From assembly GCA_964562525.1 (NCBI GenBank), contig CAZLTL010000010.1, forward strand, positions 15,389-79,388: a stretch of DNA of 64,000 nt, given 5' to 3'. The position numbers were made by a program, and so were the translations under genes. Positions 39,771 through 63,008 of this stretch are shown here, one piece after another. The notes below the pieces were generated by a model. It was not told the origin of the DNA and made no database searches. It saw nothing but the letters and a program-made list of their open reading frames with translations. The DNA comes from an uncultured bacterium. Its GTDB lineage: Bacteria > Omnitrophota > Omnitrophia > Omnitrophales > Aquincolibacteriaceae. Every line of letters starts with the position of its first letter. Position 1 is the stretch's first letter.

Positions 39771-39808
39771 GGGTGGCGAAATTGGCAGACGCAACGGACT
39801 TAAAAGCT
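39771..39808 (+). pseudogene. 5' half of a tRNA-Leu(UAA) (acceptor 5' strand, D-arm, 5' anticodon stem and loop) with no matching 3' half
   Basis: GCCCGGGTGGCGAAATTGGCAGACGCAACGGACTTAAAA matches the tRNA-Leu 5' half through the anticodon loop CTTAAAA. The following GCTGA cannot pair with ACGGA, and no 3' exon (..TCCGT..GGTTCGA..CCCGGGCA) occurs in the next 0.8 kb. Confidence 0.5.
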
Positions 39809-40552
39809 GATTTCAAGATTTTCGTAACTTCAATGTTTTGAACCTAATCCATTACCTGCGCTAGATTTAGACATGATATTTGATGATATCGTGTGATACC
39901 TAAAAACATCGATTTCTACTTGGTATAGTCACACCCTAGTCACACGGAAATTGATCAGAAACCTGCCTTTTAAATTCTCTGCTCATTACGCGATTATGAG
40001 TTTGTCTTGGGCTGGAAATTAACCAGTCATGGCTAAAATTTGACCAATCGATTAAAGGGCATATTACATCGCGTGCTCTTAGGGCTTTGTTAGATGGGTC
40101 TATTATGCTTTTAAATGGCCCAAGGCAAACGAGGGGAATGTTCCCCAGCAGGCCAACCCATTATTGACTCACATGTGCCCCTTAGGAGCTTTTTTCGGGC
40201 CTTTTTGAGATTTTAGCCGAATTGAGGGCGGCTGTGCTCTTCTACCTTATTGGATTAGGCGCCCAAAGCTGTTATTTATGATTGCCTGTCTTTAGCGTTC
40301 TGACTAAACGGAGATTTTTAGGCTGTCGTACCGGGAGGAAACGATTTCGATGAATTTAGTTTTGGTGCTGGGAGGGCGTTGGCTCGCTTTGATGAACTCG
40401 AAGCAATAGCTTTATTGATACCAGGCATTATTAATAAATTGAGCTGGGGCATCAAGTCTTTGCAGAGGCTTGAAGTTTTAAGGTGTGAATCAGCATTACC
40501 CTTGGTTTAAAATGGTGATAGTCTTAAAAAAAGAGGTTGAAATGTCTCAAAA

Positions 40553-40572
40553 TTAAGATAAGCTTATCTTAA
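40553..40572. promoter_or_regulatory. 20-bp perfect palindrome TTAAGATAAGCTTATCTTAA (predicted Rrf2/NsrR-type operator), 20 bp upstream of the truncated Rrf2 gene
   Basis: Identical 20-mer at 56972-56991; same GATAAGCTTATC core at 58253-58270 and 58775-58794, each 15-45 bp upstream of a start codon. Confidence 0.6.
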
Positions 40573-40592
40573 TTAGGGCTGAGGGAGGCTAT

Positions 40593-40847
40593 GTGCTATA
40601 TTCGAAAACTTGTGAGTATGCAATTCGGGCATTGGCCTATATTGCGTCAAAAGACGATGCTTTAACTACAGCCACTGTTGAAGTGAAGAAAGCCACGGTG
40701 ATACCCGGACCTTATTTATCGAAAGTGTTTGGGGTTCTGGTTAGAAAGACAATTTTGAAAGCAAAGCAAGGGCCGGGGAGCAGCTTTTCTTTTGCACGAG
40801 ATTTCAAAGAAATCTCACTTTTAAATCAAAAAAAGAAAAAAACATGA
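40593..40847 (+). CDS. Rrf2-family transcriptional regulator, truncated paralog (N-terminal wHTH only, Cys ligands absent)
   Basis: 84 aa. First ~70 aa are near-identical to the N-terminus of the 155-aa Rrf2 protein at 58288 (MLYSKTCEYAIRALAYIAS...GPYLSKVFGVLVRK). It ends in KKKKT within A7 tracts before the three-Cys segment; GTG start; stop overlaps the next gene (ATGA). Confidence 0.6.
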   Translation: MLYSKTCEYAIRALAYIASKDDALTTATVEVKKATVIPGPYLSKVFGVLVRKTILKAKQGPGSSFSFARDFKEISLLNQKKKKT

Positions 40848-41593
40848 TCACAAAAAAACAACGGCCCGAAACCTTATTCGAAATACCTCAGGTTTTGATT
40901 CAATCGATTCGAGCGAATTCGGACTTATCGAAATTGCCGGCTGATGCGATTGAAGATTTGGCGAAACAAGCGGCACGCAGGAAGTTTGTCCGCCGACAAA
41001 TTATTTTTGAAGCCGGTCAGCCCGCGCAGGATGCTTGGATTTTGATTAGCGGTAAAGCGGTGCTGGGCTATACGGCGCTCTCGGGGGCTTCTTCTGCGAC
41101 TTGCGTGGCGGGACCGGGAGATTTGTTCTGCTGCCTGCCGATTTTGGACGGCGAAGGTTATCCCGTTACGGCGATCAGTGAAAAGAAAAGCGAAGTTCTT
41201 ACGATTCCGCTTGCTGTTTTTAAGCAAATGCTTTGGCAGCATCCGGAAGTTTTTCAGTCTGTGTTAAAACGGATGTCCGCTAGTTTAAGAGCGGTTGAGT
41301 GCGGGCATTGTCACCGTGTTGATCGTGTTTCGGTAAGAATTGCGCGCACTTTGCTTGATTTAAGCCTAAAGCATCAGGATGTGATTCCGCTAACCAAGTG
41401 GGATATCGCGCGGCTTTCCGGAACTACGGTTGAGACGACGATTCGCGTGATGGCAGAAATGAAAAAGAAGAAAGCGATTGCCGGGGCAAAAGAAGCGATC
41501 AAAATTTTAGATTTTGATAAGCTGCGTGATTTCCTTACCGAATCCGATCAAGATTCAAGCGGCTGCGCCTCGCAAACCAAAAAAAGAAAATAA
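40844..41593 (+). CDS. Crp/Fnr-family transcriptional regulator (Dnr/NnrR-like; no FNR N-terminal Cys cluster)
   Basis: N-terminal cNMP-binding beta-roll (RRQIIFEAGQPAQDAWILISGKA) and C-terminal HTH (ARLSGTTVETTIRVMAEM); translationally coupled to the truncated Rrf2. Confidence 0.8.
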   Translation: MITKKQRPETLFEIPQVLIQSIRANSDLSKLPADAIEDLAKQAARRKFVRRQIIFEAGQPAQDAWILISGKAVLGYTALSGASSATCVAGPGDLFCCLPILDGEGYPVTAISEKKSEVLTIPLAVFKQMLWQHPEVFQSVLKRMSASLRAVECGHCHRVDRVSVRIARTLLDLSLKHQDVIPLTKWDIARLSGTTVETTIRVMAEMKKKKAIAGAKEAIKILDFDKLRDFLTESDQDSSGCASQTKKRK

Positions 41594-42310: not shown

Positions 42311-42450
42311 GTTCGCTTTTTTTCCCGGGGTTAAATTCTGAAACCGGCCGATGATAGCCCATCACGCGTGTCCAGATTTCACAGCGCTGACGCTCTTCCG
42401 GCTTTAACTGAATCAAACTTTCTGTTTTTGACATGATTTCCCTTCCTTTT

Positions 42451-44478: not shown

Positions 44479-44607
44479 GTTTTCTCCTGTGAATAGTAGT
44501 ACATAAAAAATAAACCACCAGATACGGTAGTTTACGGGTGTTTTATTTCGATCTTGTATGACGCAAATCATATGAAGCAAAAAAAGATTCGTTGAAAATA
44601 TCTCCTT

Positions 44608-45021
44608 ATGCAAAACAAAGAGATCAAACCTCTCATCTATGCCTGTTCTGGGTGCTCCAATGCCGGGCAAATGTCCAACTGGATTGCGGTTCGTATTGAT
44701 CGACTTGGCGGCGCAGAAATGTCCTGCATGACCGGCGTCGGCGGAGGTGTGCTCGCACTTGTCAACAAAGCCCGAACACGAAAAAAAATTGTCATCGAGG
44801 GCTGCAAACTCAGTTGTGCTTCAGCTTGCCTGCGTCAGCAAAATTTAGAAGCCGAGATGACTTTGAATTTACAGGATTGGGGTGTCATTCGGCGTGAACA
44901 TGACGATTTTGATCAGGCCGTGGCTGAAAAATTGGTGGAGCAAGTGATCGCCCAAATGCAGGCAAAAAGGCTTTGGAAATCAAGTTCTGAGGATGGCGGA
45001 GAAAAGAGGGCGGCATCATGA
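44608..45021 (+). CDS. small Cys-rich protein, possibly DGC-domain-like metal-binding protein
   Basis: 137 aa; IYACSGCSNAGQ ... IEGCKLSCASAC pattern resembles the DGC/zinc-chelating family; first gene of a tightly packed six-gene plus-strand operon. Confidence 0.45.
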   Translation: MQNKEIKPLIYACSGCSNAGQMSNWIAVRIDRLGGAEMSCMTGVGGGVLALVNKARTRKKIVIEGCKLSCASACLRQQNLEAEMTLNLQDWGVIRREHDDFDQAVAEKLVEQVIAQMQAKRLWKSSSEDGGEKRAAS

Positions 45022-46463: not shown

Positions 46464-47547
46464 TCAATTTGATTTTAATCAAAAGCCTTTTTTGGTGATT
46501 TGGGAAACGACACGCGCTTGTGATTTAGCCTGTGTGCATTGTCGCGCCTGTGCTCAACCATTGCCCGCGCCCGATGAATTGACAACGGAACAGGGCAAAA
46601 TGCTTTTGCGTCAGATTCAGGAGGCGGGAGCACCGTTGGTTGTTTTTAGCGGTGGCGATGCGTTGAAACGACCCGATATCTTTGAGTTGATTCGTGAAGC
46701 CAAGCGTTTGCGTCTGCGCGCGGCGGCAATTCCCGCGGTGACGCCGGCATTGACGCCTGAGGTTTTTAAAGAGTTTAAAGCGGCTGGTTTGGATCAGTTG
46801 GCGTTTAGTTTGGATGATGCTGACCCGGTTGTTCATGATCAATTTCGCCGTACGCCCGGAGTTTTTGACCGGACGCTGGAAGCGGTTCGTCTTGCGCGGG
46901 AGGCGGGGCTGGGTGTGCAGATTAATTCGCTGGTGAATGTTCATAATCAGGATCGTTTGGAGCCGTTAATGCGACTGATGGAAGGCTTGGACATTGTTTT
47001 TTGGGAGGTTTTCTTTTTAGTGCCGATGGGGCGCGGAAAAGATGTGGAAGTGATGACCCCGGAACTTTTTGACGCGGCATTTAAAAAGATTTATGCATTT
47101 GGGAAGCGTGTTTCTTTTATCATCAAAGTTACCGAAGCGCCGCATTACCGCAGATATTTTCTTGAGCAGGAAGAAAAACAAGAAGCTCGAAAAGTGGCGC
47201 TTTTAGGATCGAGCGCGCATGGCAAAAAAAATGTGCGACAACAAGCCGGTCGTGTGAATTCAGGGAAAGGATTTGCGTTTGTTTCTTATCGCGGCGATGT
47301 TTATCCCAGCGGTTTTCTCCCGATCGCGACCGGGAATATTCTTCAAACACCGATCGGTGAAATTTACCGCAATCATCCGGTGTTTCGCGAACTTCGAAAT
47401 GAATCGCTTTTAAAAGGTCGGTGCGGTCTTTGTGAATATCGTGAAACTTGCGGCGGCTCGCGCGCAAGAGCCTACGCGCTGACGGGCGACTATTTGGCGG
47501 AAGACCCGACCTGCGCTTATCAGCCGGCTTGCGTGCTTAAAACATGA
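46450..47547 (+). CDS. radical SAM / SPASM-domain protein (AhbD/NirJ-like)
   Basis: FLVIWETTRACDLACVHCRA (CxxxCxxC) and C-terminal SPASM/twitch CGLCEYRETCGGSRARAYALTGD...DPTC. Start placed at the internal ATG 46450 (MPIHDQ); ORF track opens at 46321 inside the HemY-like gene. Confidence 0.7.
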   Translation: MPIHDQFDFNQKPFLVIWETTRACDLACVHCRACAQPLPAPDELTTEQGKMLLRQIQEAGAPLVVFSGGDALKRPDIFELIREAKRLRLRAAAIPAVTPALTPEVFKEFKAAGLDQLAFSLDDADPVVHDQFRRTPGVFDRTLEAVRLAREAGLGVQINSLVNVHNQDRLEPLMRLMEGLDIVFWEVFFLVPMGRGKDVEVMTPELFDAAFKKIYAFGKRVSFIIKVTEAPHYRRYFLEQEEKQEARKVALLGSSAHGKKNVRQQAGRVNSGKGFAFVSYRGDVYPSGFLPIATGNILQTPIGEIYRNHPVFRELRNESLLKGRCGLCEYRETCGGSRARAYALTGDYLAEDPTCAYQPACVLKT

Positions 47548-48539
47548 TAAAACCTTCGATGCCTTTGTCCTTGCCGAAATGTGATCAAAAGCTGAAAAGA
47601 AACGGAATTTCTTTTGATCTTGCAATGCGTTTAATTCAGCTTGAAAAAGAAGAAGATGTGCGGGCGGTGATGAATTTAGCAGCCGAACTGACGACTGTGA
47701 TTCATGGTAGGCGTGCGGATCTGTGCCAAATTATGAACGCAAAGAGCGGTCTTTGCGGAGAAGACTGTGGTTTTTGTTCTCAGTCGCTCCGCCATCATTC
47801 TGAAACTGAAAAATTTAAGCTGACTCCACTTGAGATAGCAATCCAAAGAGCGCGAACAGCTCGGGAAAATGGCGCGGAGGAGTTCTGTATTGTGACGTCC
47901 GGTCGCCGATTGAATTCGGAAGAGTTTAAGCGGGTGATCGAAATGATTCGTGAAATTCGAAAGCAAGTTGCCATCAAAGTGGATGTTTCGATTGGTTTTT
48001 TAAGCAGGGAGGAGGCGGTGGCGCTTCGAGAAGCCGGGGCGCATCGTGTAAATCACAATCTTCAAACTTCGCCGGATTTCTACACCAAGGTTGTCAGTAC
48101 GCACTCGTATCAAGACCGCAAAGAAACTTTGCAGGCGATTCGCGGAGCGGGTCTTGAAATTTGTTGCGGAGTGATTTGGGGAATGGGAGAAACTCGTGAA
48201 GATCGCATCCGCTGCGCGTTTGAAATTAGATCTTTTAATCCCGAGTGTGTTCCTGTGAATATTTTGGATCCGCGTCCCGGGACACCGCTTGAGAACCAAC
48301 CTGGTATTGATACCGCGGAAGTTTTAAAAACATTGGCAGTGTATCGGTTGATTTTTCCCCAGACCTGTTTGAGGCTTGCGGCCGGGCGAAAGCGGCAATT
48401 GGGAAAGGATCAAAAAAAGGCATGGAATGCGGGCGTGAACGGATTAATTATCGGAGATTATTTGACGGTTTCAGGTGTGGCACTTGAAGAAGATTTTAGA
48501 ATGCTTAAAGAACTTGGCGTGAAATGGGCGCGACCATAA
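47544..48539 (+). CDS. BioB-family radical SAM protein (biotin-synthase-like)
   Basis: SGLCGEDCGFCSQS (CxxxCxxC), VNHNLQTSPDFY, SYQDRKETL, GLEICCGVIWGMGET and RLAAGRK align with E. coli BioB motifs. The BioB Cys128 ligand position appears to be Asp (IKVDVSIGF) by hand alignment. Confidence 0.75.
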   Translation: MIKPSMPLSLPKCDQKLKRNGISFDLAMRLIQLEKEEDVRAVMNLAAELTTVIHGRRADLCQIMNAKSGLCGEDCGFCSQSLRHHSETEKFKLTPLEIAIQRARTARENGAEEFCIVTSGRRLNSEEFKRVIEMIREIRKQVAIKVDVSIGFLSREEAVALREAGAHRVNHNLQTSPDFYTKVVSTHSYQDRKETLQAIRGAGLEICCGVIWGMGETREDRIRCAFEIRSFNPECVPVNILDPRPGTPLENQPGIDTAEVLKTLAVYRLIFPQTCLRLAAGRKRQLGKDQKKAWNAGVNGLIIGDYLTVSGVALEEDFRMLKELGVKWARP

Positions 48540-48554
48540 AAAATCAAAAATTTT

Positions 48555-49847
48555 ATGCAAAAAGAAATTGATTTAGCCAAACAATCTCAGGGAACTTTAT
48601 ATGTGTTTCTCTCAGAAAAGGATCATCAATGTCTTGAGGAAATTCATCAATGCTATGGTTTGACGCATCAAGATTTGCGCGAATTATGCGAAAACGCACG
48701 TGATCTCGAAATGTGGGGTGAATCTTTTGCCAGCGAATGGAATCGATTTGAACAAGAGGTCAGCCGGGTTTTTTTATCAAGGCAAAGAAAGAAGAGGCTC
48801 ATCGCTCATATTCGGCAAAGGATGGCGGATTTACGCGCTCGGTTAAGGGAATATCCCTCTCAGGATGTTGTTTCGAATCGATGCGAATCAAAACCGCCGC
48901 AAATCACTTGGCAAAAATCTCCGGAAGTAACTTGGGGGAAGTGTCCGGCATCTGTGCCCGCGCTTTTATGCTGTGGTCTGACGACGTTGGAGACAGCGGC
49001 TAACTGTGCATTTGAATGCAGTTATTGCGCGGTAAAACCCTTTTACGGAAATCAAATGGCGATTTATTCGGAATTGCGTCAAAGATTGACCCGCATGGAG
49101 TTGGATCCTAAACGCTATTACCACATCGGGACCGGACAATCTTCGGACTCTTTGGCTTGGGGTGATTCTGGAGGCATTTTAACCGATTTGTGCGAATGGG
49201 CAGCGCAACATCCTCAGGTTTTGCTCGAGCTAAAAACAAAATCAAGCCAAGTAGATTTTTTTTTAAAAAACAAAGTCCCCTCGAATCTGGTTTGTAGCTG
49301 GAGCCTGAACACGCAAAAAGTGATCGAGCATGAGGAGCAACGGACCGCGTCTTTGGAGTCACGTTTGGATGCGGCATGGAAACTTGCCCACAAAGGACAA
49401 AAGGTGGGCTTCCACTTTCATCCGTTGGTGAATTACGAAGGAGGTGCGAAGGAATATGATGCGCTTGCAAAAAAAATACAAAACAAATTCAAATCAGATC
49501 AAATTGCTTTTATCTCGTTTGGGACGCTTGTCTTTGGTAAATCAACTCTGCGCTTAATTCGCGAGCGAGGCGGGGCTGACAAAATTCTTCGGATGGAAAC
49601 GGAAATCGGACCTCACGATAAAGCAACTTATCCGGAGGCAACAAGGGAGTTTCTTTTTCGTGGGATGGTTGACAGTTTTAAAGATTGGCGCGACAAAGTT
49701 TTTATGTATTTGTGTATGGAAGATTCGGAGATGTGGCGCAAAGTTTTTGGATGGAGCTATGATAGCTCCCTTGCTTTTGAGCGAGATTTCTTTTCGAAAA
49801 TAGGTCCTCAAGTGGGGCTCCGTTTGGCTTCGGGTACCGAGATTTAA
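48555..49847 (+). CDS. radical SAM protein, spore-photoproduct-lyase (SplB)-like family, with ~130-aa N-terminal extension
   Basis: CAFECSYC (CxxxCxxC) at ~residue 155; the downstream region is SPL-like; the N-terminal domain is unrecognised. Confidence 0.55.
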   Translation: MQKEIDLAKQSQGTLYVFLSEKDHQCLEEIHQCYGLTHQDLRELCENARDLEMWGESFASEWNRFEQEVSRVFLSRQRKKRLIAHIRQRMADLRARLREYPSQDVVSNRCESKPPQITWQKSPEVTWGKCPASVPALLCCGLTTLETAANCAFECSYCAVKPFYGNQMAIYSELRQRLTRMELDPKRYYHIGTGQSSDSLAWGDSGGILTDLCEWAAQHPQVLLELKTKSSQVDFFLKNKVPSNLVCSWSLNTQKVIEHEEQRTASLESRLDAAWKLAHKGQKVGFHFHPLVNYEGGAKEYDALAKKIQNKFKSDQIAFISFGTLVFGKSTLRLIRERGGADKILRMETEIGPHDKATYPEATREFLFRGMVDSFKDWRDKVFMYLCMEDSEMWRKVFGWSYDSSLAFERDFFSKIGPQVGLRLASGTEI

Positions 49848-49849
49848 AA

Positions 49850-50887
49850 ATGACAGCGATTCAATTTGAGCGCGGAAACATATCCTTAGTTGAAGCGGAG
49901 GTTCTTCTTCAAAACGGCAGTGAAGAACAATGGAAGGCTCTTTTTTTGTATGCACGCGAATTAACCGAAATAAATTTCGACCACAAAATCGACTTCTTCG
50001 CACCGCTTTATTACTCAGATTATTGCGTGAATGATTGTGCTTACTGCTCTTTTCGAATTAAAAACCGTCAATTTTCAAGAAAAGTGCTTTCAGTCAAAGA
50101 ATTTTTAAAAGAGGCGGAATATCTTTGGCAGGAAGGGCACAGGTCGATTCTTTTGGTTGCGGGTGAGCATACTCCCGTTGCGGGAGCTGCTGCGTTGGTT
50201 GAGTATGCAAAAGCTTTGCATGCCTCAGAGTTTTTCTTTGAATTAGCCGCTGAGACTGGCGCGCTCACTTCTGAAAGCTATGCACAGCTTGTTAAGGCAG
50301 GGATCTCACGTAATTTGCTTTACCAAGAAACCTATGATCGCCAAGTTTACGCGCAGGTCCATTTATCCGGACCCAAGCAGGATTTTGATTGGCGATACGA
50401 AGCTCCGCTCCGCGCCCTTCAGGCGGGCGTCCAAAGTTTTGGCATGGGAGTCTTGCTAGGGCTTGCGCCGGATTGGAGAAAAGAGATCTTGGAGCTTTTC
50501 CGGCATGCCATGGCTTTAAAAGCCAAAGCTACGCGCCCTTTCTTTTTGACTTTTTCTTTTCCGCGTTTGTGTTCAGCCCAAGGTAGTGACATCGCTTCTT
50601 TCCCGGTGACCGATCAGGATTATGAAAAAATTATTGCGCTCACGCGGGTTGTTTTTCCCGATGCCGGGATTGTTTTAAGTACGCGCGAAACAGCTGCGTT
50701 TAGAAAAGAATTATTGCAAAAAAAAATGGGTATTACGCATATGAGCGCGGGGGTTTCAACGACGGTTGGTGGCTACACGAAAGCAAAAAAGATGAGCCTG
50801 GGGCAATTTGATATTTCAGATGAGCGGCCGCTGAAAGAAATTGCAACGGAAATGACCAAAATGGGATTTATTTTAAACCGCGTCTAG
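49850..50887 (+). CDS. radical SAM protein of the ThiH/HydE/MqnC-like family
   Basis: PLYYSDYCVNDCAYCSF (CxxxCxxC in the YSNYCxNxCxYC context typical of the ThiH/HydE/HydG/Mqn group); 345 aa. Confidence 0.6.
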   Translation: MTAIQFERGNISLVEAEVLLQNGSEEQWKALFLYARELTEINFDHKIDFFAPLYYSDYCVNDCAYCSFRIKNRQFSRKVLSVKEFLKEAEYLWQEGHRSILLVAGEHTPVAGAAALVEYAKALHASEFFFELAAETGALTSESYAQLVKAGISRNLLYQETYDRQVYAQVHLSGPKQDFDWRYEAPLRALQAGVQSFGMGVLLGLAPDWRKEILELFRHAMALKAKATRPFFLTFSFPRLCSAQGSDIASFPVTDQDYEKIIALTRVVFPDAGIVLSTRETAAFRKELLQKKMGITHMSAGVSTTVGGYTKAKKMSLGQFDISDERPLKEIATEMTKMGFILNRV

Positions 50888-51290
50888 CTTTTTTTGCGTC
50901 ATGGATCATCCGTTTAACCATGAGAGTGGCCGTTGCCTTGGCAACTAACTTTCGGTTTAATCCGCGGATTTCACATTCCAAAAACGAGAGCGTTTTCCCT
51001 TGCGATACGACATGCGCTCTTGCGTGGAGGACTGTGTTGATAAAGACAGGCCGAATAAATTGAATCTTCAATTCAACTGTCACTCCGGTTATATTTTTTT
51101 TGAATGAAGTTAGGAAAGCTTTTCCCATCGTTTCGTCGGCAAGCATGCAAAGCATGCCCCCGTGGATATGCTTGAAAATATTAACATGCTCTTCACTCAC
51201 TTTAAATCGGCACACGGCCTTACCGTTCGAAGGGCTTATGACATGCAGACCCAAAAGCTGTGTGGCAGGAGAGTGATCGATTTTTTTCAT
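50868..51290 (-). CDS. PaaI/YbgC-type hotdog-fold thioesterase
   Basis: HGGMLCMLADETMGKAF hotdog active-site motif, 140 aa; ATGA-coupled downstream of the B12-radical-SAM gene. Confidence 0.75.
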   Translation of the reverse strand: MKKIDHSPATQLLGLHVISPSNGKAVCRFKVSEEHVNIFKHIHGGMLCMLADETMGKAFLTSFKKNITGVTVELKIQFIRPVFINTVLHARAHVVSQGKTLSFLECEIRGLNRKLVAKATATLMVKRMIHDAKKARRGLK

Positions 51291-53404
51291 GAGAGAGTGG
51301 GGTGGTTAACGTCGCGTTGATAGAATCCGACTTCGAAAATGATGGCCCACACAAACCGAACGAGCAACGCCGTTTCTTGGAGGCTGACTTTTATCAACTC
51401 CACGAGGTTTAATCTCAAAATATGCCCGTGTTTTAAGTTGAGCTGAAAACTTTTCCAGTAATGATTTAAAAAACTTCGATTCGGAAGCAGAGCGATAGAA
51501 AATAAATTCAGTTTTTTTATCCAAAGTTGAAGTTTTGAAGGGATGCTGTGGGAGGTATTCTTTTCCGGCGTTATTGCGGCATGTCGGTAAAGAGATTGGA
51601 GGGTTGACAATTTGATTTTACGCCAATCGGTGAATTGGGTTTGAAGTTTTCCAAGTTCGAACAGAACCTTTTTTTCAAGTCGGCTACGTGGGCGAGTGAT
51701 AAGCCAAACCTCTTCCATTTCAATCAATAGGCGGCACCAACCGACTAATGTTTCGATGCGTGCCCATAAGCGTTGCTTAAAATGAACCCACGGGTTTTCT
51801 CGGGGGAAGAGACCGCGGCGTGTCAGGCGATCTTTAAAACGAAAAAACCCATGAATCATGGGGTGCCCTTTCTCAACCTGAATGGAATTTTTGCACCAAA
51901 TGAAATTAAGAAAGATATCCCAGTACCGCCTAGGGTGAATGTGGGTAAGAATTCTTTTCAAATTTTCAGGGGCGTAAAAAATTTGCCATGCTGATTCATA
52001 CACACGAGTCCATTCCCCGGGACGCATTTGAGCATGGCGATAAGTTTCGTGAAATGTGTCAAAATTATTTAAGTCAGCATCAATCATGAAGCCACGGTTC
52101 TTTCCATGGACATAGTCCATGGATCCAGGGAGAGGTGTCAGCATAAAAAAAGATGCTTGCTCGGCGTTCAACTCCAACAAGTTTGCCATGTTGCGTTGAA
52201 CGGATTCGGCAGTGTCAAACGGGAAACCAATAATGTAGGCTAGGTGGGTTGCAATGGCTGCGCTATGATAGGCCTCAATCATGGTCGAAAACTCGGAAAC
52301 TTTATTTTGTTTTTTAGAAGCAGCTTTGAGATTTTCTTCGTTGAGGCTTTCCATGCCGATGAAAACTTGCCGACAGCCCGCTTGAGAGGCCTTGGTGATA
52401 AAGTTTTGAATTTTATGAGAGAGCGTATCGACCTGAATCATGAATGTGATTGCAATATTCTCATTTTTCCGCAACTGAATCAGTCCATCGAAAATGAGTT
52501 CCCAGTTTTTATTCCGTGAAAAATTGTCATCCGTAAAAAAATAGTAAGATATTTTCTTCTCTCGATAATTATCGCGAATCCAATCGATAATGCGGTTGAC
52601 GGCACGAAAACGCATTTGGCGACCCTGAACATTGATGACTGTGCAGAAGCTGCATTGAAAAGGGCAGCCGCGGCCGCAATCCAGCGTCGCAAAATGTGAG
52701 ACGGCATAACGCGAGAGGAGATTCTTTGGAATTTCAGGCATAGGAGCCGCTGAAAGATCAGGCGCTTCATGCAAAAAATTGTAAACAGGTTGCGTTGAAT
52801 TGGTTAAAACATCGCGTAAAATTTCTTCCCAGCGATGTTCAATTTCACCGGCAACGAGAATAACGCCTGCGGATTTCAAATCAGCCAATTCAGGCGAGAG
52901 ATTAGCGAGAGTTGAAATCACGCCGCTGACATGAAAGCCCCCGATCATAACGTCGATATTACTTTTCTTTAATTCCAAAGCCAGGTCGTAAGCACGCGGG
53001 AATTGATTGGATTGAACTCCCACAAGACAAACGAGAGTATGCGTATTTTTTTTACGACTCTCGCGGATAATCCGTTGTGTGTCAACCTTCTGAACCGTTT
53101 CATCAATAGCCTCAACTTGCCATTTCAAATTAGGTCCAAGAGCTTGCCGTTTGCGAACATCCTCCGTTAGTCCGTAGAGGCAGGCAAGGGTATTGCTCGG
53201 CAATACACCTTTCCAGTAGCGTATGACATAGCCGTCATCATCATATTTTGAAGGCTTGATCAGATGAATCTTCAGCCGACGCGGAGAGTGGGAATCGGTT
53301 AAGTGTTTAGCGGATGACGCCGCATTTTTTTCTACATCGGCACTACACTGCTTACAAATCGGAACACGCTTCGACAAAGTATTAAATCTCCACAGGTTAG
53401 ACAA
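51287..53404 (-). CDS. B12-binding-domain radical SAM protein (class B-type) with long C-terminal extension
   Basis: N-terminal cobalamin-binding Rossmann-like region (LVCLVGVQSNQFPRAYDLALELKKSNIDVMIGGFHVSG), then CGRGCPFQCSFC (CxxxCxxC); 705 aa. Confidence 0.7.
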   Translation of the reverse strand: MSNLWRFNTLSKRVPICKQCSADVEKNAASSAKHLTDSHSPRRLKIHLIKPSKYDDDGYVIRYWKGVLPSNTLACLYGLTEDVRKRQALGPNLKWQVEAIDETVQKVDTQRIIRESRKKNTHTLVCLVGVQSNQFPRAYDLALELKKSNIDVMIGGFHVSGVISTLANLSPELADLKSAGVILVAGEIEHRWEEILRDVLTNSTQPVYNFLHEAPDLSAAPMPEIPKNLLSRYAVSHFATLDCGRGCPFQCSFCTVINVQGRQMRFRAVNRIIDWIRDNYREKKISYYFFTDDNFSRNKNWELIFDGLIQLRKNENIAITFMIQVDTLSHKIQNFITKASQAGCRQVFIGMESLNEENLKAASKKQNKVSEFSTMIEAYHSAAIATHLAYIIGFPFDTAESVQRNMANLLELNAEQASFFMLTPLPGSMDYVHGKNRGFMIDADLNNFDTFHETYRHAQMRPGEWTRVYESAWQIFYAPENLKRILTHIHPRRYWDIFLNFIWCKNSIQVEKGHPMIHGFFRFKDRLTRRGLFPRENPWVHFKQRLWARIETLVGWCRLLIEMEEVWLITRPRSRLEKKVLFELGKLQTQFTDWRKIKLSTLQSLYRHAAITPEKNTSHSIPSKLQLWIKKLNLFSIALLPNRSFLNHYWKSFQLNLKHGHILRLNLVELIKVSLQETALLVRFVWAIIFEVGFYQRDVNHPTLS

Positions 53405-54910: not shown

Positions 54911-56725
54911 ATGTCAGTTCATTCATTTCATATCCCTGTGATGGGGACCGGTTTTACGATCGATACCCCTCTTAAGGTGGCGCGTTACGGCATTTCCTCG
55001 GTGATGTCGGTTGATGACAATCTGATGGAGAAATTGCGCGAATATTATTCAGCGCAAGAGGGGCTTCCGTTTCAGCCGATTGCTAAAAACTTACTTGATT
55101 CCCGGGCACGGAGAATTACGGCTTATTTAAATTTAGTGCATGACTTGGTTCAAAAGCAATTTTCAGAATTAAAGCAATCTTCGTTTGAGCCTGGAAGCGA
55201 AATTACAAAATATTTTGAGTTGCTGGCGGATGACAGTGAACTCAAAAAAGAGTATAGCCGAATGATGGCGATGGAAGCGGGTGATGCAAAGATTCAGCTT
55301 CAAAGTGAATTGCGTCAAAAGCTAGAGGTCGGCTCGATCGATGTTAATTTGCTCACCAAGCTCGATCGTGAAAACTATCAGAAGGGAGAAAAACTTTCGC
55401 GTGATTATGCCGATGGCGTGGCGGCTTTGCGCGGCTTTGCCCAAAGTAAATTAGAGTCTTCAGTTGTTTTTTCGGCGGGAATTAATCCGTATCTGTACGG
55501 TTCTTTAGAGCAGTATTCTGATTTTTTTCCTGATCCGCTGGGTGCGGTAAAAAAGAAAATTATTATCAAAGTCAGTGATTTCCGTTCGGCAGTGGTGCAG
55601 GGACGGTTTCTGGCCAAAAAAGGGTTATGGGTTTCCGAGTTCCGCGTCGAGTCGGGGCTGAATTGCGGAGGGCATGCCTTTGCGACAACGGGGCAGCTGC
55701 TGGGAGTCATTTTGGAAGAATTCAAAAAAGAGCGGGAAAGTTTTTCCGCGGAGCTTTTTGAAATTTATAAAAAAGCACTTCTTGCAAAAGGAAAAATGTG
55801 CCCTTCGGTTAAACCTCGATTGAGAGTTACAGCTCAGGGAGGCGTGGGAACTTTTGCCGAACATCAATTTTTATTGCGGCACTATCAGTTGGATAGCGTG
55901 GGCTGGGGAAGTCCGTTTCTTTTGGTGCCGGAGGTGACATGTGTGGATCCGGATTCTTTGACTAAGTTAAGTCAAGCCGACGAAAACACCGTTTATTTGA
56001 GTGATTTGTCTCCGCTTGGCGTACCGATTTATAGTCTTAGAAATTCGGCGAGTGAAGCGATGCGTCTTCAGCGTATTGCTGCGGGAAAGCCCGGGAGTCC
56101 GTGTTTGAATAAGTATATGGCTTATAACACGGAATTTCCCGGAGAACCTCTGTGTGCGGCTTCCTCAGAGTATCAATCAAAAAAGATCGCGCAATTAAAG
56201 ACTCAAGATTTAAGCCCTGAAAAATACAGCGAAGAATACAAAAAAATCGTAGATAAAGCCTGTGTTTGTCATGATCTCGGGGAAGGTGCGCTTCTTAAAT
56301 ATGGTATTCCGTCCCGCAGTGTTAAGCCTGTTCCGGCGGTTTGTCCCGGGCCGAATATTGTTTATTTTTTTAAAATCGCGACTCTGCGCGAAATGGTGGA
56401 TCATATTTATGGTCGGATGAATTTGCTCAAGAAGGAAAAAAATCGGCCGCACATGCTGATTAATGAATTCCGGATCTATATTGATTTTTTCAAGAAAAAG
56501 AGGGCGCAGTTTTCAGAGCCTTTGAATGATAAAGATAAAAACTATTTGTCGGATTTCTTAACAAATTTGAATGGTTGTTTGAATTATTATTTTCAGATGA
56601 TTGACCAACTGTTTGAAGAGTCGCTTGCAGCCAGAGATTCTTTTCTTGAAAGTCTGAAGGCTTTTCAACAAGACGTGGACTCTTTGACAGCTTCTTTGAT
56701 TGGACTTCGTTTTGGCACAAGCTAG
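54911..56725 (+). CDS. hypothetical protein (604 aa), possibly with N-terminal NMO/FabK-like flavoprotein segment
   Basis: No firm family. The N-terminal IPVMGTGFTIDTPLKVARYGISSV loosely resembles the [26 protein letters not shown] start of nitronate-monooxygenase-like TIM barrels. GLNCGGHAF motif mid-protein; follows fabB-like after an 11-nt gap. Confidence 0.45.
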   Translation: MSVHSFHIPVMGTGFTIDTPLKVARYGISSVMSVDDNLMEKLREYYSAQEGLPFQPIAKNLLDSRARRITAYLNLVHDLVQKQFSELKQSSFEPGSEITKYFELLADDSELKKEYSRMMAMEAGDAKIQLQSELRQKLEVGSIDVNLLTKLDRENYQKGEKLSRDYADGVAALRGFAQSKLESSVVFSAGINPYLYGSLEQYSDFFPDPLGAVKKKIIIKVSDFRSAVVQGRFLAKKGLWVSEFRVESGLNCGGHAFATTGQLLGVILEEFKKERESFSAELFEIYKKALLAKGKMCPSVKPRLRVTAQGGVGTFAEHQFLLRHYQLDSVGWGSPFLLVPEVTCVDPDSLTKLSQADENTVYLSDLSPLGVPIYSLRNSASEAMRLQRIAAGKPGSPCLNKYMAYNTEFPGEPLCAASSEYQSKKIAQLKTQDLSPEKYSEEYKKIVDKACVCHDLGEGALLKYGIPSRSVKPVPAVCPGPNIVYFFKIATLREMVDHIYGRMNLLKKEKNRPHMLINEFRIYIDFFKKKRAQFSEPLNDKDKNYLSDFLTNLNGCLNYYFQMIDQLFEESLAARDSFLESLKAFQQDVDSLTASLIGLRFGTS

Positions 56726-56893
56726 AAGCGGTTTCATAAGTATTCATAAGCGTCGAATTGACATAGACTTCGGCTGGCTGCGTCGTCCTGCATCGACAAT
56801 GTGCTTTGGACATTGCCTGCTTCGGACTCCTTGCCATCCTCGTCTCTCTCAATTCTTTGGCTTTACGACTACTTATGAAACCGCTTCTAGCAT
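56720..56893. repeat. MITE-like element / large hairpin: 21-bp perfect terminal inverted repeats (GCTAGAAGCGGTTTCATAAGT ... ACTTATGAAACCGCTTCTAGC) flanking ~130 bp
   Basis: The arms are exact reverse complements; the left arm overlaps the last 6 nt of the 604-aa ORF including its stop; the inner flanks continue as imperfect inverted repeats. Confidence 0.55.
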
Positions 56894-56971
56894 TATCTGA
56901 TTTGTCGCAGTTCCGTTGGTGAATGGCATACTCAGAATAGATCTAAAAAAGACCTTGCATGGCGTTTTTAA

Positions 56972-56991
56972 TTAAGATAAGCTTATCTTAA
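56972..56991. promoter_or_regulatory. 20-bp perfect palindrome TTAAGATAAGCTTATCTTAA (predicted Rrf2/NsrR-type operator), 45 bp upstream of the RIC gene
   Basis: Identical to 40553-40572. Confidence 0.6.
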
Positions 56992-57035
56992 TTCGATTTT
57001 TGAAATGTTTTAAGACTTACTAATGGGAGCTATTC

Positions 57036-57743
57036 ATGGATGTCCGGGAAAAAACTGTCGCGCAGGTTGTGGCCGAAAATTATAAGGCCGCCGCCGTATT
57101 TAAAAAAAATGGGATTGATTTTTGCTGTGGCGGAAAAATAGCGGTTGCTGAAGCGTGCCGAAGCAAAGAAATTAATCTTGATCGTTTCGTTCAAGAATTA
57201 GAAAAAGTTATGCAAGAGCCGGCGCTGAAAGATGTTGCCGGGCTGGACCCTAGCAAGCTGGTAGATTACATTGTTGATGAGCATCATGCTTATGTGCGTA
57301 GGCGCATTCCCGAGATTGAACCTTTCCTTGATAAGGTCGCACGGGTGCACGGAGATCGCCATCCCGAGCTTGTGCAAACACGCGATCTTTTTAATGTTGT
57401 TAAGAGCGAGCTTCTCTCGCATATGCTTGACGAAGAGACCGAGCTTTTTGCTCAAATCAAGCAAATGACAGTTTCCCGCGAGGCTGAGACCTTGTCCGCA
57501 AAGATTCCGTCGGGAGTACTGAAGAAACAAATTTTGGCATTAGAAGAAACCCATAGCGGTGTCGGACAGAATTTTAAGGAAATACGAAAAATAACAAATG
57601 ATCTCACCCCGCCGGAAGACGCCTGCAATACCTATCGTGTGACATTCTCAATGCTTGCTGAATTTGAGGACGATTTGCATCGGCATATTCATTTAGAAAA
57701 CAATGTGCTGTTCCCCAGCCTAATTAACTTGGGGGAGGGATGA
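57036..57743 (+). CDS. ytfE: iron-sulfur cluster repair di-iron protein (RIC / YtfE / ScdA family)
   Basis: N-terminal ScdA_N motif GIDFCCGG, then a hemerythrin-like four-helix domain with H/E ligands (DEHHAYVRRRIPEIE, HMLDEE, HIHLENNVLFP). Confidence 0.85.
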   Translation: MDVREKTVAQVVAENYKAAAVFKKNGIDFCCGGKIAVAEACRSKEINLDRFVQELEKVMQEPALKDVAGLDPSKLVDYIVDEHHAYVRRRIPEIEPFLDKVARVHGDRHPELVQTRDLFNVVKSELLSHMLDEETELFAQIKQMTVSREAETLSAKIPSGVLKKQILALEETHSGVGQNFKEIRKITNDLTPPEDACNTYRVTFSMLAEFEDDLHRHIHLENNVLFPSLINLGEG

Positions 57744-57744
57744 G

Positions 57745-58095
57745 ATGCCCATTGATCCAGTGATAAAATCAGAGGATGGTGTCAATGTCATTCCCGTTTC
57801 GACGATACGTGTTTTTGGTTCCCAAATCTGGCTCTTTGATTATTTTATGAAGAAGACAGAGCGCAATCTTCGGATCAATCCCCAGGCAGGGTTGGTTTGC
57901 TGGAAAGCCATGGACGCTTATCAATTTAAAGGCAAAAGTGGATACAAAACATCCGGAATGGATTTTGACCGCGCCAAAGAGATTACGGCGGAATTAAATC
58001 CTGAAAGAAGACTGAAGGGGCTTGTTGTTTTTACGCCCGAGCAGATATTTTTAGTGAGCCCTCAAAGCGATTCGACTAAAAATATTCTGAAATAA
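57745..58095 (+). CDS. pyridoxamine-5'-phosphate-oxidase-like (FMN-binding split-barrel) small protein
   Basis: 116 aa, beta-rich; pattern consistent with the PNPOx-like / general stress protein 26 fold; low certainty. Confidence 0.45.
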   Translation: MPIDPVIKSEDGVNVIPVSTIRVFGSQIWLFDYFMKKTERNLRINPQAGLVCWKAMDAYQFKGKSGYKTSGMDFDRAKEITAELNPERRLKGLVVFTPEQIFLVSPQSDSTKNILK

Positions 58096-58252
58096 AAATA
58101 TCCCGGCCACAGATTCATAAATCAGCGATTCCTTTTGGCCGTGACGCGTACCGTGTGAATATAACTTCAACCCGCTGAAGAGTCGCTTTTCCATAGCTGC
58201 GCATTTGTGATGTTTCGTAATCTTTAAAAAACACTTGCCTTTGTTTCTAAAT

Positions 58253-58270
58253 CAAGATAAGCTTATCCTT
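58253..58270. promoter_or_regulatory. imperfect copy of the GATAAGCTTATC palindrome (CAAGATAAGCTTATCCTT), 18 bp upstream of the Rrf2/NsrR-like gene
   Basis: Shares the 12-bp core with the two perfect 20-mers. Confidence 0.55.
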
Positions 58271-58287
58271 ATTTAGCTGAGGTTAAA

Positions 58288-58755
58288 ATGCTTTACTCTA
58301 AAACATGTGAATATGCAATTCGGGCGCTGGCGTATATTGCTTCTCAAAAGAATTATGCCGGCTACACATCAAGCTCCGAAGTTAAAAAAGCGACCGGAGT
58401 CCCAGGGCCCTATTTATCAAAAGTATTTGGGGTGTTAGTGCGCAAAGAGGTTTTGAATGCCAAACAAGGCCCCGGAGGGGGAGTTGCTTTTGCGCGTTCC
58501 CCAAAAGAGATTTCACTTCTCGATATTATTTCGTCGATTGAGACGACTGAGCTCGTGGAAAAAAAATGTATCATGGGCCTCTCAGAGTGCAGCGCTAAGC
58601 ATGCTTGCCCGATGCATGATGAGTGGGGAGAGTTAAAGCGAAAAATGGTGCGTAAGTTGTCTAAAATTTCAATTTTTGACATATCCCAGGCTTTGGGAAC
58701 GAGACAATTTCGTGAGTTGAGCCGTGCCAAACTCAAAGACTGGGCGGCGGCATAA
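58288..58755 (+). CDS. nsrR: Rrf2-family [Fe-S] transcriptional regulator (NsrR-like)
   Basis: N-terminal wHTH (MLYSKTCEYAIRALAYIAS); three-Cys cluster-ligand segment CIMGLSECSAKHACPMH; 155 aa; preceded by its own palindromic site. Confidence 0.75.
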   Translation: MLYSKTCEYAIRALAYIASQKNYAGYTSSSEVKKATGVPGPYLSKVFGVLVRKEVLNAKQGPGGGVAFARSPKEISLLDIISSIETTELVEKKCIMGLSECSAKHACPMHDEWGELKRKMVRKLSKISIFDISQALGTRQFRELSRAKLKDWAAA

Positions 58756-58774
58756 CATTTTTTTAATCAAAACA

Positions 58775-58794
58775 AGGATAAGCTTATCTTTAAT
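58775..58794. promoter_or_regulatory. imperfect copy of the palindrome (AAGGATAAGCTTATCTTTAA), 11 bp upstream of the hemerythrin gene
   Basis: GATAAGCTTATC core conserved. Confidence 0.55.
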
Positions 58795-58804: not shown

Positions 58805-59293
58805 ATGAATATTGAATCAAAAAATCAAGTTTTAACGGCCTATTTTGAAGCAGATCATGATCGTTTGGATGCGCTTTTAAATAACTTTGCTAATCTGAAA
58901 GACTCGGATTTTTTAGCGGCAAAGCCTTTTTTTAAAACCTTTCTTCAGGGGTTGAAGCGGCACATTGTGTGGGAAGAGGATGTTTTGTTTCCGGCTTTTG
59001 AGGCGAAGACCGGAATGCGTAGCGCCGGGCCGACGGAAGTGATGCGAATGGAGCATCGTTTGATCGGTCAAGCTTTAGAGCGGCTGCATGATAAAGTTCG
59101 CCGTGCCGATGCGGTTTGTGAGGATGAAATTGAACGGTTGATTGAAACATTAGAGCCGCATAATCAAAAAGAAGAACAAGTGCTTTATCCTGCATTGGAT
59201 TCAATGTTAAGCTGTGAAGAGGCAGCGGAGATTTTTCGCGCTATGGAGGCCATTCCGGCGGAGCGCTATCTCACTTGTTGCGGTGTGCATTAA
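58805..59293 (+). CDS. hemerythrin-like (HHE cation-binding) domain protein
   Basis: H/E ligand pattern HIVWEEDVLFPAFE, MEHRLIGQALERLHD, HNQKEEQVLYPALD; 162 aa; heads the qNOR operon. Confidence 0.75.
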   Translation: MNIESKNQVLTAYFEADHDRLDALLNNFANLKDSDFLAAKPFFKTFLQGLKRHIVWEEDVLFPAFEAKTGMRSAGPTEVMRMEHRLIGQALERLHDKVRRADAVCEDEIERLIETLEPHNQKEEQVLYPALDSMLSCEEAAEIFRAMEAIPAERYLTCCGVH

Positions 59294-61649: not shown

Positions 61650-63008
61650 GTGAATTTAAGAATGTTTGTCGTTTTTCTGGGGGTTTCTTTTTGCGGCTGG
61701 ACGGCGCATGCGGCCGAAACCGTTCAAGAGATTCCGGTTTGGAAAAAGCCTTTTCAGGCGCATTCGATTGCGGGCTCAGACTGGAGTTTAAAGCCGGGCA
61801 TTGAAAGCCGCTACCGCTTTGAATACCGCAATAATTTCAATCTCCGTGATCAAACTTACGAAGACGACGCGGTTAACTTGCTGCGCAATCGGATTAATCT
61901 CGACTTGATTTATCAGCCCGAAAAAGAGGGCGGAAAAATGCGGTTTTTTTCCGAGGCGCAGGATTCGCGCAGTTTTGCTTCAAGTGCGCTGAACCGTAAC
62001 GCGGGGTTTGTGAATGAGTTTGACCTGCGGCAGCTTTTCGCGGAATGGTCGGGCGATCCCGGAAAAATACCGGTTCAGATTAAAATCGGGCGGCAAGAGT
62101 TAAACTATGGCGATGAGCGCCTGGTTGGCGCCTTTAATTGGAGTAATGTGGCGCGCGTGTTTAATGCCGCGAAATTGGTTTATTCTCCGACCTCCTGGCT
62201 TCAGCTCGATTCATTTATTTCGCGGGTTGTGCGGGTTGAGCGCGAGCGTCCCGATCATGATTCTTCCAATGATAATTTTTTTGGATTGGTATCGGCGGTG
62301 AAGCCCGCGAAGGAGCATGCGCTCGACACTTATTTTTTCGCTCGTAATTTGCGTGATAATAGTTTGGCGAGTGAGCGCGCGGGTATCCGGGGGCCGCTGA
62401 AAGAGTACACGCTCGGGAATCGTTTTCGCGGTAAGAAATGGAATTTTGATTATGGCACCGAATACGCCATTCAATTCGGAAGCCGTGCGCATGATGATAT
62501 CCAAGCCTGGATGTTTCATCAGGATCTTGCCTATACTTTTGCCAGGCTGCCGTGGGCACCTAAACTGTTGACCGAGTTTAATCACGCGTCGGGAGACCGA
62601 AATCCGACGGACGGTGTTACACAGACTTTTGATCAGCTTTATCCCACGAATCATGACAAGTACGGGTTCATGGATTTAGTCGGTTTGAGGAATATGAATA
62701 ATGTCCGCCTCGGGCTTTCCGCCAAGCCCTGTTCGCGGGTGACATTGAGCTCGGATTTTCATTGGTTTTTCCGCGATGCCAAAGAGTCCGCTTGGTTTTC
62801 AGCTTCCGGTGCTTTGGCAAGAGCCGCTAATGTGCGCGCCGGGCGCCAAATCGGTGAAGAGCTGGATTTAACGGCAGCAGTCAAAATAACGCAGAACCTG
62901 AACGGCTTAATCGGATATTCCCATTTTTTTGCTGGTCCGTTTATTCAAGACACCGGCAGTAATGATGATGCTGATTTTTTTTATGTTCAAACCGTTTTTA
63001 AAATCTAA
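61650..63008 (+). CDS. outer-membrane beta-barrel, alginate-export (AlgE)-like family
   Basis: Signal peptide (FLGVSFCGWTAHA), the ESRYRFEYRNN motif typical of Alginate_exp barrels, alternating amphipathic strands, C-terminal aromatic-rich strand; GTG start with AAGGAGAG ribosome-binding site. Confidence 0.55.
   Translation: MNLRMFVVFLGVSFCGWTAHAAETVQEIPVWKKPFQAHSIAGSDWSLKPGIESRYRFEYRNNFNLRDQTYEDDAVNLLRNRINLDLIYQPEKEGGKMRFFSEAQDSRSFASSALNRNAGFVNEFDLRQLFAEWSGDPGKIPVQIKIGRQELNYGDERLVGAFNWSNVARVFNAAKLVYSPTSWLQLDSFISRVVRVERERPDHDSSNDNFFGLVSAVKPAKEHALDTYFFARNLRDNSLASERAGIRGPLKEYTLGNRFRGKKWNFDYGTEYAIQFGSRAHDDIQAWMFHQDLAYTFARLPWAPKLLTEFNHASGDRNPTDGVTQTFDQLYPTNHDKYGFMDLVGLRNMNNVRLGLSAKPCSRVTLSSDFHWFFRDAKESAWFSASGALARAANVRAGRQIGEELDLTAAVKITQNLNGLIGYSHFFAGPFIQDTGSNDDADFFYVQTVFKI

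Follow-up and report, generated by a model that had tools for sequence, protein, structure and literature searches.

The closest parallel to the locus described here, where a family of palindromes accompanies the gene of an Rrf2-family regulator, is the NsrR regulon of Neisseria, with norB, aniA, and dnrN. The locus lies in a 64-kb stretch of DNA (hereafter the window) from an uncultured Omnitrophota bacterium (GenBank assembly GCA_964562525.1, contig CAZLTL010000010.1, positions 15,389 to 79,388), for which an initial annotation had proposed a putative NsrR-type regulon. NsrR, an NO-sensing Rrf2 repressor of proteobacteria, Bacillus, and Streptomyces, coordinates a [4Fe-4S] cluster through three Cys residues and Asp8 of the partner subunit. 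Its canonical motif gATGyAT-N5-ATrCATc is an odd 11-1-11 repeat, and its regulon extends to denitrification genes (PMC1274295). IscR holds a [2Fe-2S] cluster through three Cys residues and one His, and it is with the cluster bound that IscR, NsrR, RsrR, and RirA act as high-affinity repressors (PMC11672702). RsrR, the redox-sensing [2Fe-2S] Rrf2 protein of Streptomyces venezuelae, binds an 11-3-11 repeat, and its case demonstrated that an NsrR-like annotation can cover distinct sensors that have an operator of their own (PMC5015018). Comparison of the window with homologous loci suggests that its palindromes are the predicted operators of a 155-amino acid (aa) Rrf2 repressor of nitric oxide (NO)-defense genes belonging to an uncharacterized clade, an explanation that we consider probable as a whole.

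Palindromes upstream of the Rrf2 gene

Across the entire window, the 12-mer GATAAGCTTATC occurs in four exact copies, at 40557, 56976, 58256, and 58777, against an expectation of 0.00 in 100 dinucleotide-preserving shuffles, and the degenerate core RGAYANNNNTRTCY returned the same four places only (0.24 expected). The 20-mer TTAAGATAAGCTTATCTTAA, a perfect palindrome, is exact at 40553-40572 and 56972-56991, while 58252-58271 is a copy with three mismatches. All four palindromes are intergenic, with 20, 44, 16, and 12 bp, respectively, between the end of the 20-mer and the start codon at sites 1 to 4. The initial annotation had recognized four palindromes, two of them perfect 20-bp copies, lying 11-45 bp upstream of start codons, all of which was recovered here; its coordinates were exact for sites 1 and 2, and those for sites 3 and 4 (58253-58270 and 58775-58794) were 1-2 bp off the symmetric 20-mers, which is immaterial. 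The predicted operators, scored with a position weight matrix (PWM), and the gene of the proposed repressor are as follows.

40553..40572, no strand: operator 1, TTAAGATAAGCTTATCTTAA; PWM 28.7 bits; its center TAAGCT (40559-40564) is a putative -10 element
56972..56991, no strand: operator 2, TTAAGATAAGCTTATCTTAA; exact match and PWM match; TAAGCT at 56978-56983
58252..58271, no strand: operator 3 (predicted autoregulation), TCAAGATAAGCTTATCCTTA; PWM 26.6 bits; TAAGCT at 58258-58263
58773..58792, no strand: operator 4, CAAGGATAAGCTTATCTTTA; PWM 22.8 bits; between the Rrf2 stop codon and the ribosome-binding site of the hemerythrin gene
58288..58755, + strand: Rrf2-family regulator, 155 aa, the proposed repressor; PF02082 90.5 bits; C94-x6-C101-x5-C107-x2-H110

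Using homologues of the 155-aa Rrf2 protein, we fetched 31 genomic loci (232 kb). Related palindromes were found just upstream of the Rrf2 start in Omnitrophota, Planctomycetia, an Eisenbacteria metagenome-assembled genome (MAG), and others, examples being TTAGGATATGCTTGTCCTAA, TTTGGATATGCTTATCCTAA, and TCAGGATATCATTATCCAGA. Their symmetrized consensus is TTAGGATAAGCTTATCCTAA, with the core rGAyA-N4-TrTCy. This core had 17 exact matches in the 232 kb, of which 11 were located within 100 bp upstream of an Rrf2 start codon, a zone that makes up 1.3% of the sequence; two others lay just downstream of Rrf2, before the hemerythrin gene, and two headed operons containing Rrf2. The hemerythrin-proximal site, at the position of operator 4, is conserved in loci L001, L002, L032, and L033. 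Flanks of the palindrome are unrelated between phyla. Diverged palindromes with the same GGA-N8-TCC frame occur in more distant relatives (L034 and L035), and Gemmatimonadota homologues that have no palindrome (L014 and L018) carry the recognition helix PRxFTSKILR, not PGPYxxKIFQ. A palindrome pinned upstream of Rrf2 across phyla is the standard comparative-genomics signature of an autoregulated factor and its site. We consider it very likely that the 20-bp palindrome is the operator of the adjacent 155-aa Rrf2 protein, as this signature predicts. That the same palindrome precedes homologous Rrf2 genes in many genomes unrelated to one another also bears out the earlier suggestion of a real operator family.

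It is most improbable that the palindromes lack a regulatory role and represent copies of a mobile or recombination-prone repeat, or else RNA hairpins or terminators. Promoter-operator modules were duplicated and moved in this lineage, and an element resembling a miniature inverted-repeat transposable element (MITE) lies 80 bp upstream of site 2, both of which speak for repeat copies. However, the sites share only ~20-24 bp, with differing flanks, and the same palindrome occupies the same promoter position in distant phyla. The corresponding RNA folds are weak and, with z -1.6 and -0.1, unremarkable; they are not followed by a T-run.

The search for further copies covered ~100 kb of this genome and close strains, together with a metagenome collection. 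Scanning the latter for TTARGATAAGCTTATCYTAA returned six loci and no new regulon members: two are from the same organism, namely L044 (the RIC promoter) and L045 (truncated Rrf2-Crp), and the remaining four, retroelement-like repeats or a long palindrome, are unrelated. A literature search on the 12-mer, or on Rrf2 with Omnitrophota or Planctomycetes, returned nothing relevant. A fifth PWM match in the window, at 30287 (TATGTATAAGTTTATCCAAA, 18.3 bits), was rejected as chance, being a coding start without promoter context that overlaps the dxs ATG. The near-match to the operator lies at the dxs start, ATGTATAAGTTTATCCAAA (window 30209-30306), and ~80 bp further upstream a short duplicate, ATGTATAAATTTATCGAAC, opens a 23-codon open reading frame (ORF). 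This copy is probably a small duplication of the dxs gene start, with the operator-like match there arising by chance. The dxs sequence itself places the organism in Omnitrophota, being 89% identical to that of a Candidatus Omnitrophica MAG.

The 155-aa Rrf2 protein and its described relatives

The initial annotation had named an Rrf2 protein as the regulator, and its membership of the superfamily was confirmed by PF02082 (90.5 bits, cut-off 30) and TIGR00738 (94.7 bits, cut-off 73.3); it has a conserved Fe-S-type ligand motif. An AlphaFold2 model (predicted local distance difference test score 83) adopts the Rrf2 fold, which combines a winged helix with a long dimerization helix, and all significant fold matches in the PDB were Rrf2 proteins. 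Among the models scored, the protein reached no equivalog cut-off, yielding 42.2 bits with the NsrR model NF008240 (cut-off 182), 56.9 and 37.1 bits with the IscR models TIGR02010 (cut-off 207.55) and NF008110 (cut-off 275), 46 bits with the RirA model (cut-off 193), and 60 bits with the SUF regulator model (cut-off 111). Identity to the solved RsrR, IscR, CymR, and NsrR structures was 17-20% alike, and of these four NsrR ranked lowest when the PDB was searched by profile and by fold. NsrR structures were not found at E<=0.001 when the PDB was searched with the single sequence; with the family profile, NsrR appeared at 8e-10, behind IscR and RsrR, and in the fold search it ranked 24th and 36th. 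The top structural match was RsrR (Foldseek E 2e-7, template modeling score 0.67), and entry 7ZPN in the same search is the IscR of Dinoroseobacter shibae.

Homologues form ~240 clusters at 50% identity, drawn from Omnitrophota, Planctomycetia, Eisenbacteria-like, and other MAGs. On sequence grounds, we judge this clade to be an uncharacterized branch of Rrf2 whose members occur in Omnitrophota, Planctomycetia, and a small number of further phyla. Across 151 family representatives, C94, C101, and C107 are conserved at 99-100% and H110 at 95%, while position 8 is Glu in 66%. C101, C107, and H110 align with C98, C104, and H107 of IscR, the cluster-ligand positions that are mutated in Escherichia coli apo-IscR. 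Cys7 was considered as a fourth cluster ligand and rejected, since it is invariant in the 17 closest sequences but occurs in only 54% of the 151 representatives.

With IscR, the protein thus shares the set of three Cys with a single His, and among the solved structures IscR matches it best, or nearly so, by sequence and by profile. It differs in that the first Cys is offset by one residue and the recognition helix reads PGPYLSKVF, compared to SLSYLEQLF in IscR. No isc or suf genes, the Fe-S biogenesis targets of IscR, were found behind the regulator in the loci examined, where downstream genes were assigned by Pfam scan or contig annotation; hence, the regulator is not IscR either. We also take its operator to be unlike the type 1 or type 2 sites of IscR. 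RsrR and the protein described here both have Glu at position 8, but the RsrR ligand His12 is replaced by Arg12 (Arg in 121 of 151 clade members), and the targets of RsrR lie in NAD(P)H metabolism, not among NO genes.

The resemblance to NsrR extends over the Rrf2 fold, what we infer to be a holo-repressor acting on a palindrome that overlaps the promoter, an autoregulated or target-adjacent regulator gene, and a regulon of NO-detoxification and denitrification genes (ytfE/dnrN-type RIC, norB, and nirK). A true NsrR orthologue of the E. coli, Bacillus, or Streptomyces type with a diverged NsrR box would account for this gene content, given that RIC/YtfE, NO reductase, nitrite reductase, and autoregulation are all features of proteobacterial NsrR regulons (PMC1274295), and for the three conserved Cys residues with an acidic residue 8 (Glu here, Asp8 in ScNsrR). 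We consider such an orthologue unlikely. The NsrR model score is far below its cut-off, and both the SUF-regulator model and the IscR model TIGR02010 score higher; NsrR also trails IscR and RsrR in the PDB profile search and ranks low in the fold search. The Cys spacing is C-x6-C-x5-C, and the motif is followed by an IscR-type His that is far better conserved than Glu8. Furthermore, the operator is an even 10-0-10 repeat (TTArGATAAG directly followed by CTTATCyTAA), in contrast to the odd 11-1-11 repeat of NsrR, for which a 23-bp operator was used in PDB 7b0c. The AAGAT and ATCTT blocks are 7 bp closer together here than in the NsrR box, and the outer AAGAT lacks conservation over the clade as a whole, with GGAT commoner than AGAT; the likeness to the NsrR box is therefore superficial. 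Neither the NsrR-type regulator nor the new variant of the NsrR operator envisaged in the initial annotation withstood these comparisons. The protein is probably NsrR-like in function but is not NsrR in ancestry or operator architecture.

Promoters, genes behind the operators, and the candidate signal

The register of -35 and -10 elements was checked directly on 24 sites aligned on the palindrome. A TTG hexamer stands 16-18 bp upstream of the in-palindrome TAnnnT in 17 of the 24 sites, whereas the TTG test alone was satisfied at 12% of control positions, and some sites fit the full consensus (e.g., TTGACA-17-TATCAT and TTGACA-17-TAAACT). In the window, -35-like hexamers precede three of the predicted operators.

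40537..40542, + strand: TTGAAA, promoter 1, 16 bp upstream of TAAGCT in operator 1
56955..56960, + strand: TTGCAT, RIC promoter, 17 bp upstream of TAAGCT in operator 2
58235..58240, + strand: TTGCCT, Rrf2 promoter, 17 bp upstream of TAAGCT in operator 3

Because the operator covers the -10 element, repression would proceed by promoter occlusion, and we regard repression at this element by the predicted operator as likely. No -35 box was found at operator 4 or at its counterparts in L001, L002, L032, and L033. Operator 4 may act as a second operator, serving either as a roadblock or as a weak internal promoter.

The genes behind the operators, beyond Rrf2 itself, are listed below.

40593..40847, + strand: truncated Rrf2, 84 aa, GTG start; PF02082 43.5 bits over residues 4-77, the winged-helix part only
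40844..41593, + strand: Crp/Fnr-family regulator, 249 aa, with cNMP_binding and HTH_Crp_2 domains; behind operator 1
57036..57743, + strand: RIC/YtfE-type di-iron Fe-S repair protein, 235 aa; TIGR03652 240.8 bits (cut-off 204.7)
57745..58095, + strand: PNPOx-like small protein, 116 aa, paired with RIC; PF01243 25.3 bits, below cut-off
58805..59293, + strand: hemerythrin-domain protein, 162 aa; PF01814 77.8 bits
59327..61615, + strand: quinol-dependent NO reductase (qNOR), 762 aa; PF22085 (NorB_cytochrome_c-like) 214 bits and COX1 180 bits
61650..63008, + strand: Alginate_exp-family outer-membrane beta-barrel (porin), 452 aa; PF13372 259.5 bits
63036..64000, + strand: copper nitrite reductase (NirK-type), N-terminal part, from its translation; cut by the window end

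Family models agree with the gene identities given in the initial annotation (truncated Rrf2, RIC/YtfE, full-length Rrf2, and hemerythrin-qNOR), a list that was correct as far as it went but lacked the Crp/Fnr overlap, the PNPOx-like gene after RIC, and the porin and NirK genes after qNOR. The order Rrf2-hemerythrin-qNOR-porin(-NirK), with two operators, is kept in related genomes; synteny of the porin is conserved in L032, L034, and L037, and the NirK orthologue in L037 and L032 contains Cu-oxidase_3 and Cytochrom_C domains. The RIC-PNPOx pair was also found in L035-L041. The hemerythrin-domain protein is related to the di-iron domain of RIC (NF008221, 50 bits, profile positions 120-172). Exact look-ups of the window porin and qNOR, made to extend the contig, matched no record, and one at its left end returned just a 4-kb contig. 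In Ralstonia eutropha norA-norB, the hemerythrin-like di-iron protein NorA is encoded upstream of qNOR. The window shares this pairing of a hemerythrin-domain gene with a quinol NO reductase gene; while the Ralstonia nor operon is activated by the sigma-54 activator NorR (PMC1274295), the pair here is under predicted Rrf2 repression and is extended by the porin and NirK.

The 249-aa protein behind operator 1, in whose sequence no N-terminal FNR-type Cys cluster is visible, raised the question of whether a Crp/Fnr factor, and not Rrf2, binds the palindrome. Besides the location of this gene directly behind operator 1, the core GGATA-N4-TATCC has the 14-bp 5-N4-5 geometry of FNR, DNR, or HcpR boxes, for which wyTTGACnnnnGTCAArw represents the FNR-like form (PMC1274295). 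Nevertheless, binding by such a factor is very unlikely. A half-site of GGATA does not resemble the consensus TTGAT/TTGAC-N4-ATCAA/GTCAA, the palindrome is centered on the -10 hexamer and not near -41.5 or -61.5, and tblastn homologues of the 249-aa protein were confined to the same-species loci L011 and L045 and one paralogue in L036, with none in the other palindrome loci. Across phyla, it is the Rrf2 gene that the palindrome accompanies.

Under the Rrf2 explanation, a dimer carrying an Fe-S cluster on Cys94, Cys101, Cys107, and His110 would bind the 20-bp TTArGATAAGCTTATCyTAA, as its position and conservation predict. The bound protein would block RNA polymerase at the promoters of RIC-PNPOx, Rrf2 (autoregulation), and truncated Rrf2-Crp/Fnr, which would be of sigma-70 type, with the central TAAGCT as -10 and a TTGnnn -35 box 16-17 bp upstream. 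Operator 4 would add a second block on the Rrf2-hemerythrin-qNOR-porin-NirK transcript. Judging by gene content and the precedent of NsrR, IscR, and RirA, NO, and possibly O2, would damage the cluster, whereupon the protein would leave the DNA. Its release would switch on together NO reduction, di-iron/Fe-S repair, nitrite reduction, and the Crp/Fnr regulator.

Several points weigh against this explanation. Locus collection went through the Rrf2 gene, which partly builds in co-occurrence with the palindrome, although not its positional precision. The site scan spanned only the ~100 kb given above. A consensus sigma-70 scanner called none of the proposed promoters, because TAAGCT matches TATAAT at only three of six positions, and without a -35 box the mode of action of the hemerythrin-proximal sites is uncertain. 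Finally, distant clade members have the same operator at the head of genes for a desaturase and a globin, radical-SAM/SPASM proteins, an amine oxidase, NrdD, multihaem cytochromes, and a divergent FeoB; a gene for a haem-copper oxidase family (COX1-domain) protein also stands behind the operator in such members. For these distant targets, a general O2, redox, or Fe-S sensor is no worse an explanation than one dedicated to NO, and is perhaps a better one, making it a serious rival for the clade as a whole.

For the window itself, we slightly favor NO as the physiological signal, since every controlled gene with an assignable role here, as judged from gene content, handles NO or nitrite. It is less likely, though far from negligible, that the same operators and repressor respond to O2, redox, or Fe-S cluster status in the manner of IscR, RsrR, or RirA, with the NO genes being no more than the part peculiar to this lineage, in a regulon that switches iron-dependent functions, aerobic as well as anaerobic. 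A sensor of this kind would be in keeping with the IscR-type set of three Cys and one His, with RsrR and IscR as the best structural and profile matches, and with the genes behind the operator elsewhere in the clade: an O2-dependent fatty-acid desaturase and a globin in L004-L006 and L008, radical-SAM/SPASM and amine oxidase in L005 and L010, an anaerobic ribonucleotide reductase in L019, and a divergent feoB in L013. In the window and its relatives, however, all targets with an assignable role are NO or nitrite genes (RIC, hemerythrin, qNOR, and NirK), and in the ~100 kb scanned no site was found at isc, suf, or the O2- and iron-linked targets of the distant clade. An O2 signal would, moreover, have air switch on anaerobic denitrification, which makes little physiological sense. 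The small autoregulated regulon of NO-detoxification and denitrification genes described in the initial annotation is upheld for this lineage only, with sites at RIC, at hemerythrin-qNOR-porin-NirK, and at Rrf2, and the case for NO sensing is likewise confined to it; the signal cannot be read directly from the sequence, when distant clade members place the same operator before desaturase/globin, radical-SAM, NrdD, and FeoB operons.

To our knowledge, nothing is known of the regulation of denitrification or NO stress in Omnitrophota and many Planctomycetia, which are uncultured. A readable operator with an identified regulator offers a directly testable handle, comprising one protein and one 20-bp probe. 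If correct, the explanation would add a sixth or seventh functional type of Fe-S Rrf2 sensor, after IscR, NsrR, RirA, and RsrR, and the combination of an IscR-like ligand set with an NsrR-like job would represent convergent recruitment of Rrf2 branches to NO sensing. The gain is incremental, not conceptual, as palindromic operators that lie over promoters are already well known for repressors of the Fe-S Rrf2 kind.

Assembly of the regulon and neighboring genes

Window positions 39776-40826, which include flanking DNA, operator 1, and the truncated Rrf2 up to about codon 79, are 93% identical in nucleotide sequence to the start of contig L032. There the homologous stretch runs on into a full-length Rrf2 (P0003), behind which lie hemerythrin, qNOR, porin, and NirK, and the homology stops at window position 40826. 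The continuation in L032 indicates that the truncated Rrf2 is the stump of a second operon of this type. In the stump, GGG is changed to GSS, although G64 and G65 are invariant in 150-151 of 151 family representatives; its ORF ends in ...QKKKKT*, which is poly-A-derived, and its stop overlaps the Crp/Fnr start codon (ATGA). The truncated Rrf2 is decayed or reused, now forming a leader ORF into the Crp/Fnr gene. The same truncated form, with the same junction and an intact ORF, was present in L011, from a related MAG and 93% identical over 7 kb, and in L045, and an 85-aa variant (P0016) occurred in another sample. It could be a mere relic with translational coupling or a competitor for the operators that consists of the DNA-binding domain only.

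The RIC promoter has a different history. In the MAG of L011, at locus L001, the orthologue of a 604-aa gene that precedes RIC in the window is followed directly by the Rrf2 promoter and operator and by Rrf2, RIC-PNPOx being absent, and the L001 Rrf2 promoter/operator aligns as an orthologue with the RIC promoter/operator of the window. This arrangement implies that RIC was inserted behind the old Rrf2 promoter and that Rrf2 received a second copy of the module. The next-best relatives of RIC are only ~53% identical, the named ones being mostly from Bacteroidota, consistent with a putative acquisition of RIC from outside the lineage.

The locus is a clean example of regulon growth through duplication and capture of promoter-operator modules. 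The fullest account is one that we hold to be evenly poised: an unrecognized, multi-phylum Rrf2 clade that has a Cys3-His site like that of IscR and a compact operator of its own (GGAyA-N4-TrTCC within a 20-bp palindrome that doubles as the -10) would have independently taken the NsrR role in Omnitrophota denitrifiers, its regulon growing by module copying and capture as RIC-PNPOx was inserted and Crp/Fnr was fused behind the stump of the second Rrf2.

The conserved ~600-aa (604-aa) protein (window 54911-56725), encoded just upstream of the RIC promoter, had no sequence match in Pfam, NCBIfam, or the PDB. In the Planctomycetia loci L013 (3113-4918) and L019 (644-2482), its gene comes first behind the same operator, with Rrf2 next. 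It is a recurrent, uncharacterized partner of this Rrf2 clade. A 171-bp element with 22-29-bp terminal inverted repeats (window 56721-56891) starts in its stop codon. At the orthologous position, L001 has a single CTAG in its place. The element looks like a MITE inserted at CTAG, the target of IS630-type elements. Across strains whose flanks share only 91% identity it is 100% identical; it has an RNA fold of -73.9 kcal/mol, and is single-copy in the sequences searched.

The Alginate_exp beta-barrel recurs directly after N-oxide reductases, namely qNOR, NrfHA, and a multihaem cytochrome, with copies at window 61650-63008, L012 7784-8935, L032 4161-5531, L034 3107-4561, and L037 10735-12093. Its role may be that of a dedicated channel through which nitrite, NO, or N2O passes. 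In one strain (L036, 12451-13565), the operon is interrupted downstream of operator 4 by an IS3-family insertion sequence (rve and HTH_Tnp_1), which separates the hemerythrin gene from qNOR.

The DNA that separates operator 1 from the RIC promoter includes a block of anaerobic metabolism (window 41555-53404), where the PWM scan returned no operator sites. The block encodes NrdD (739 aa, minus strand), a probable activase, several radical-SAM/BATS proteins, an SPL-family protein, a 4HBT thioesterase, and a ketoacyl synthase. On the other side of operator 1, tRNA-Cys (39652-39724) is followed by an apparent 5' half of tRNA-Leu(UAA) at 39768-39805 and then by ~750 bp devoid of ORFs. This tRNA region (39652-40552) may be the boundary of a genomic island containing the anaerobic and denitrification genes.

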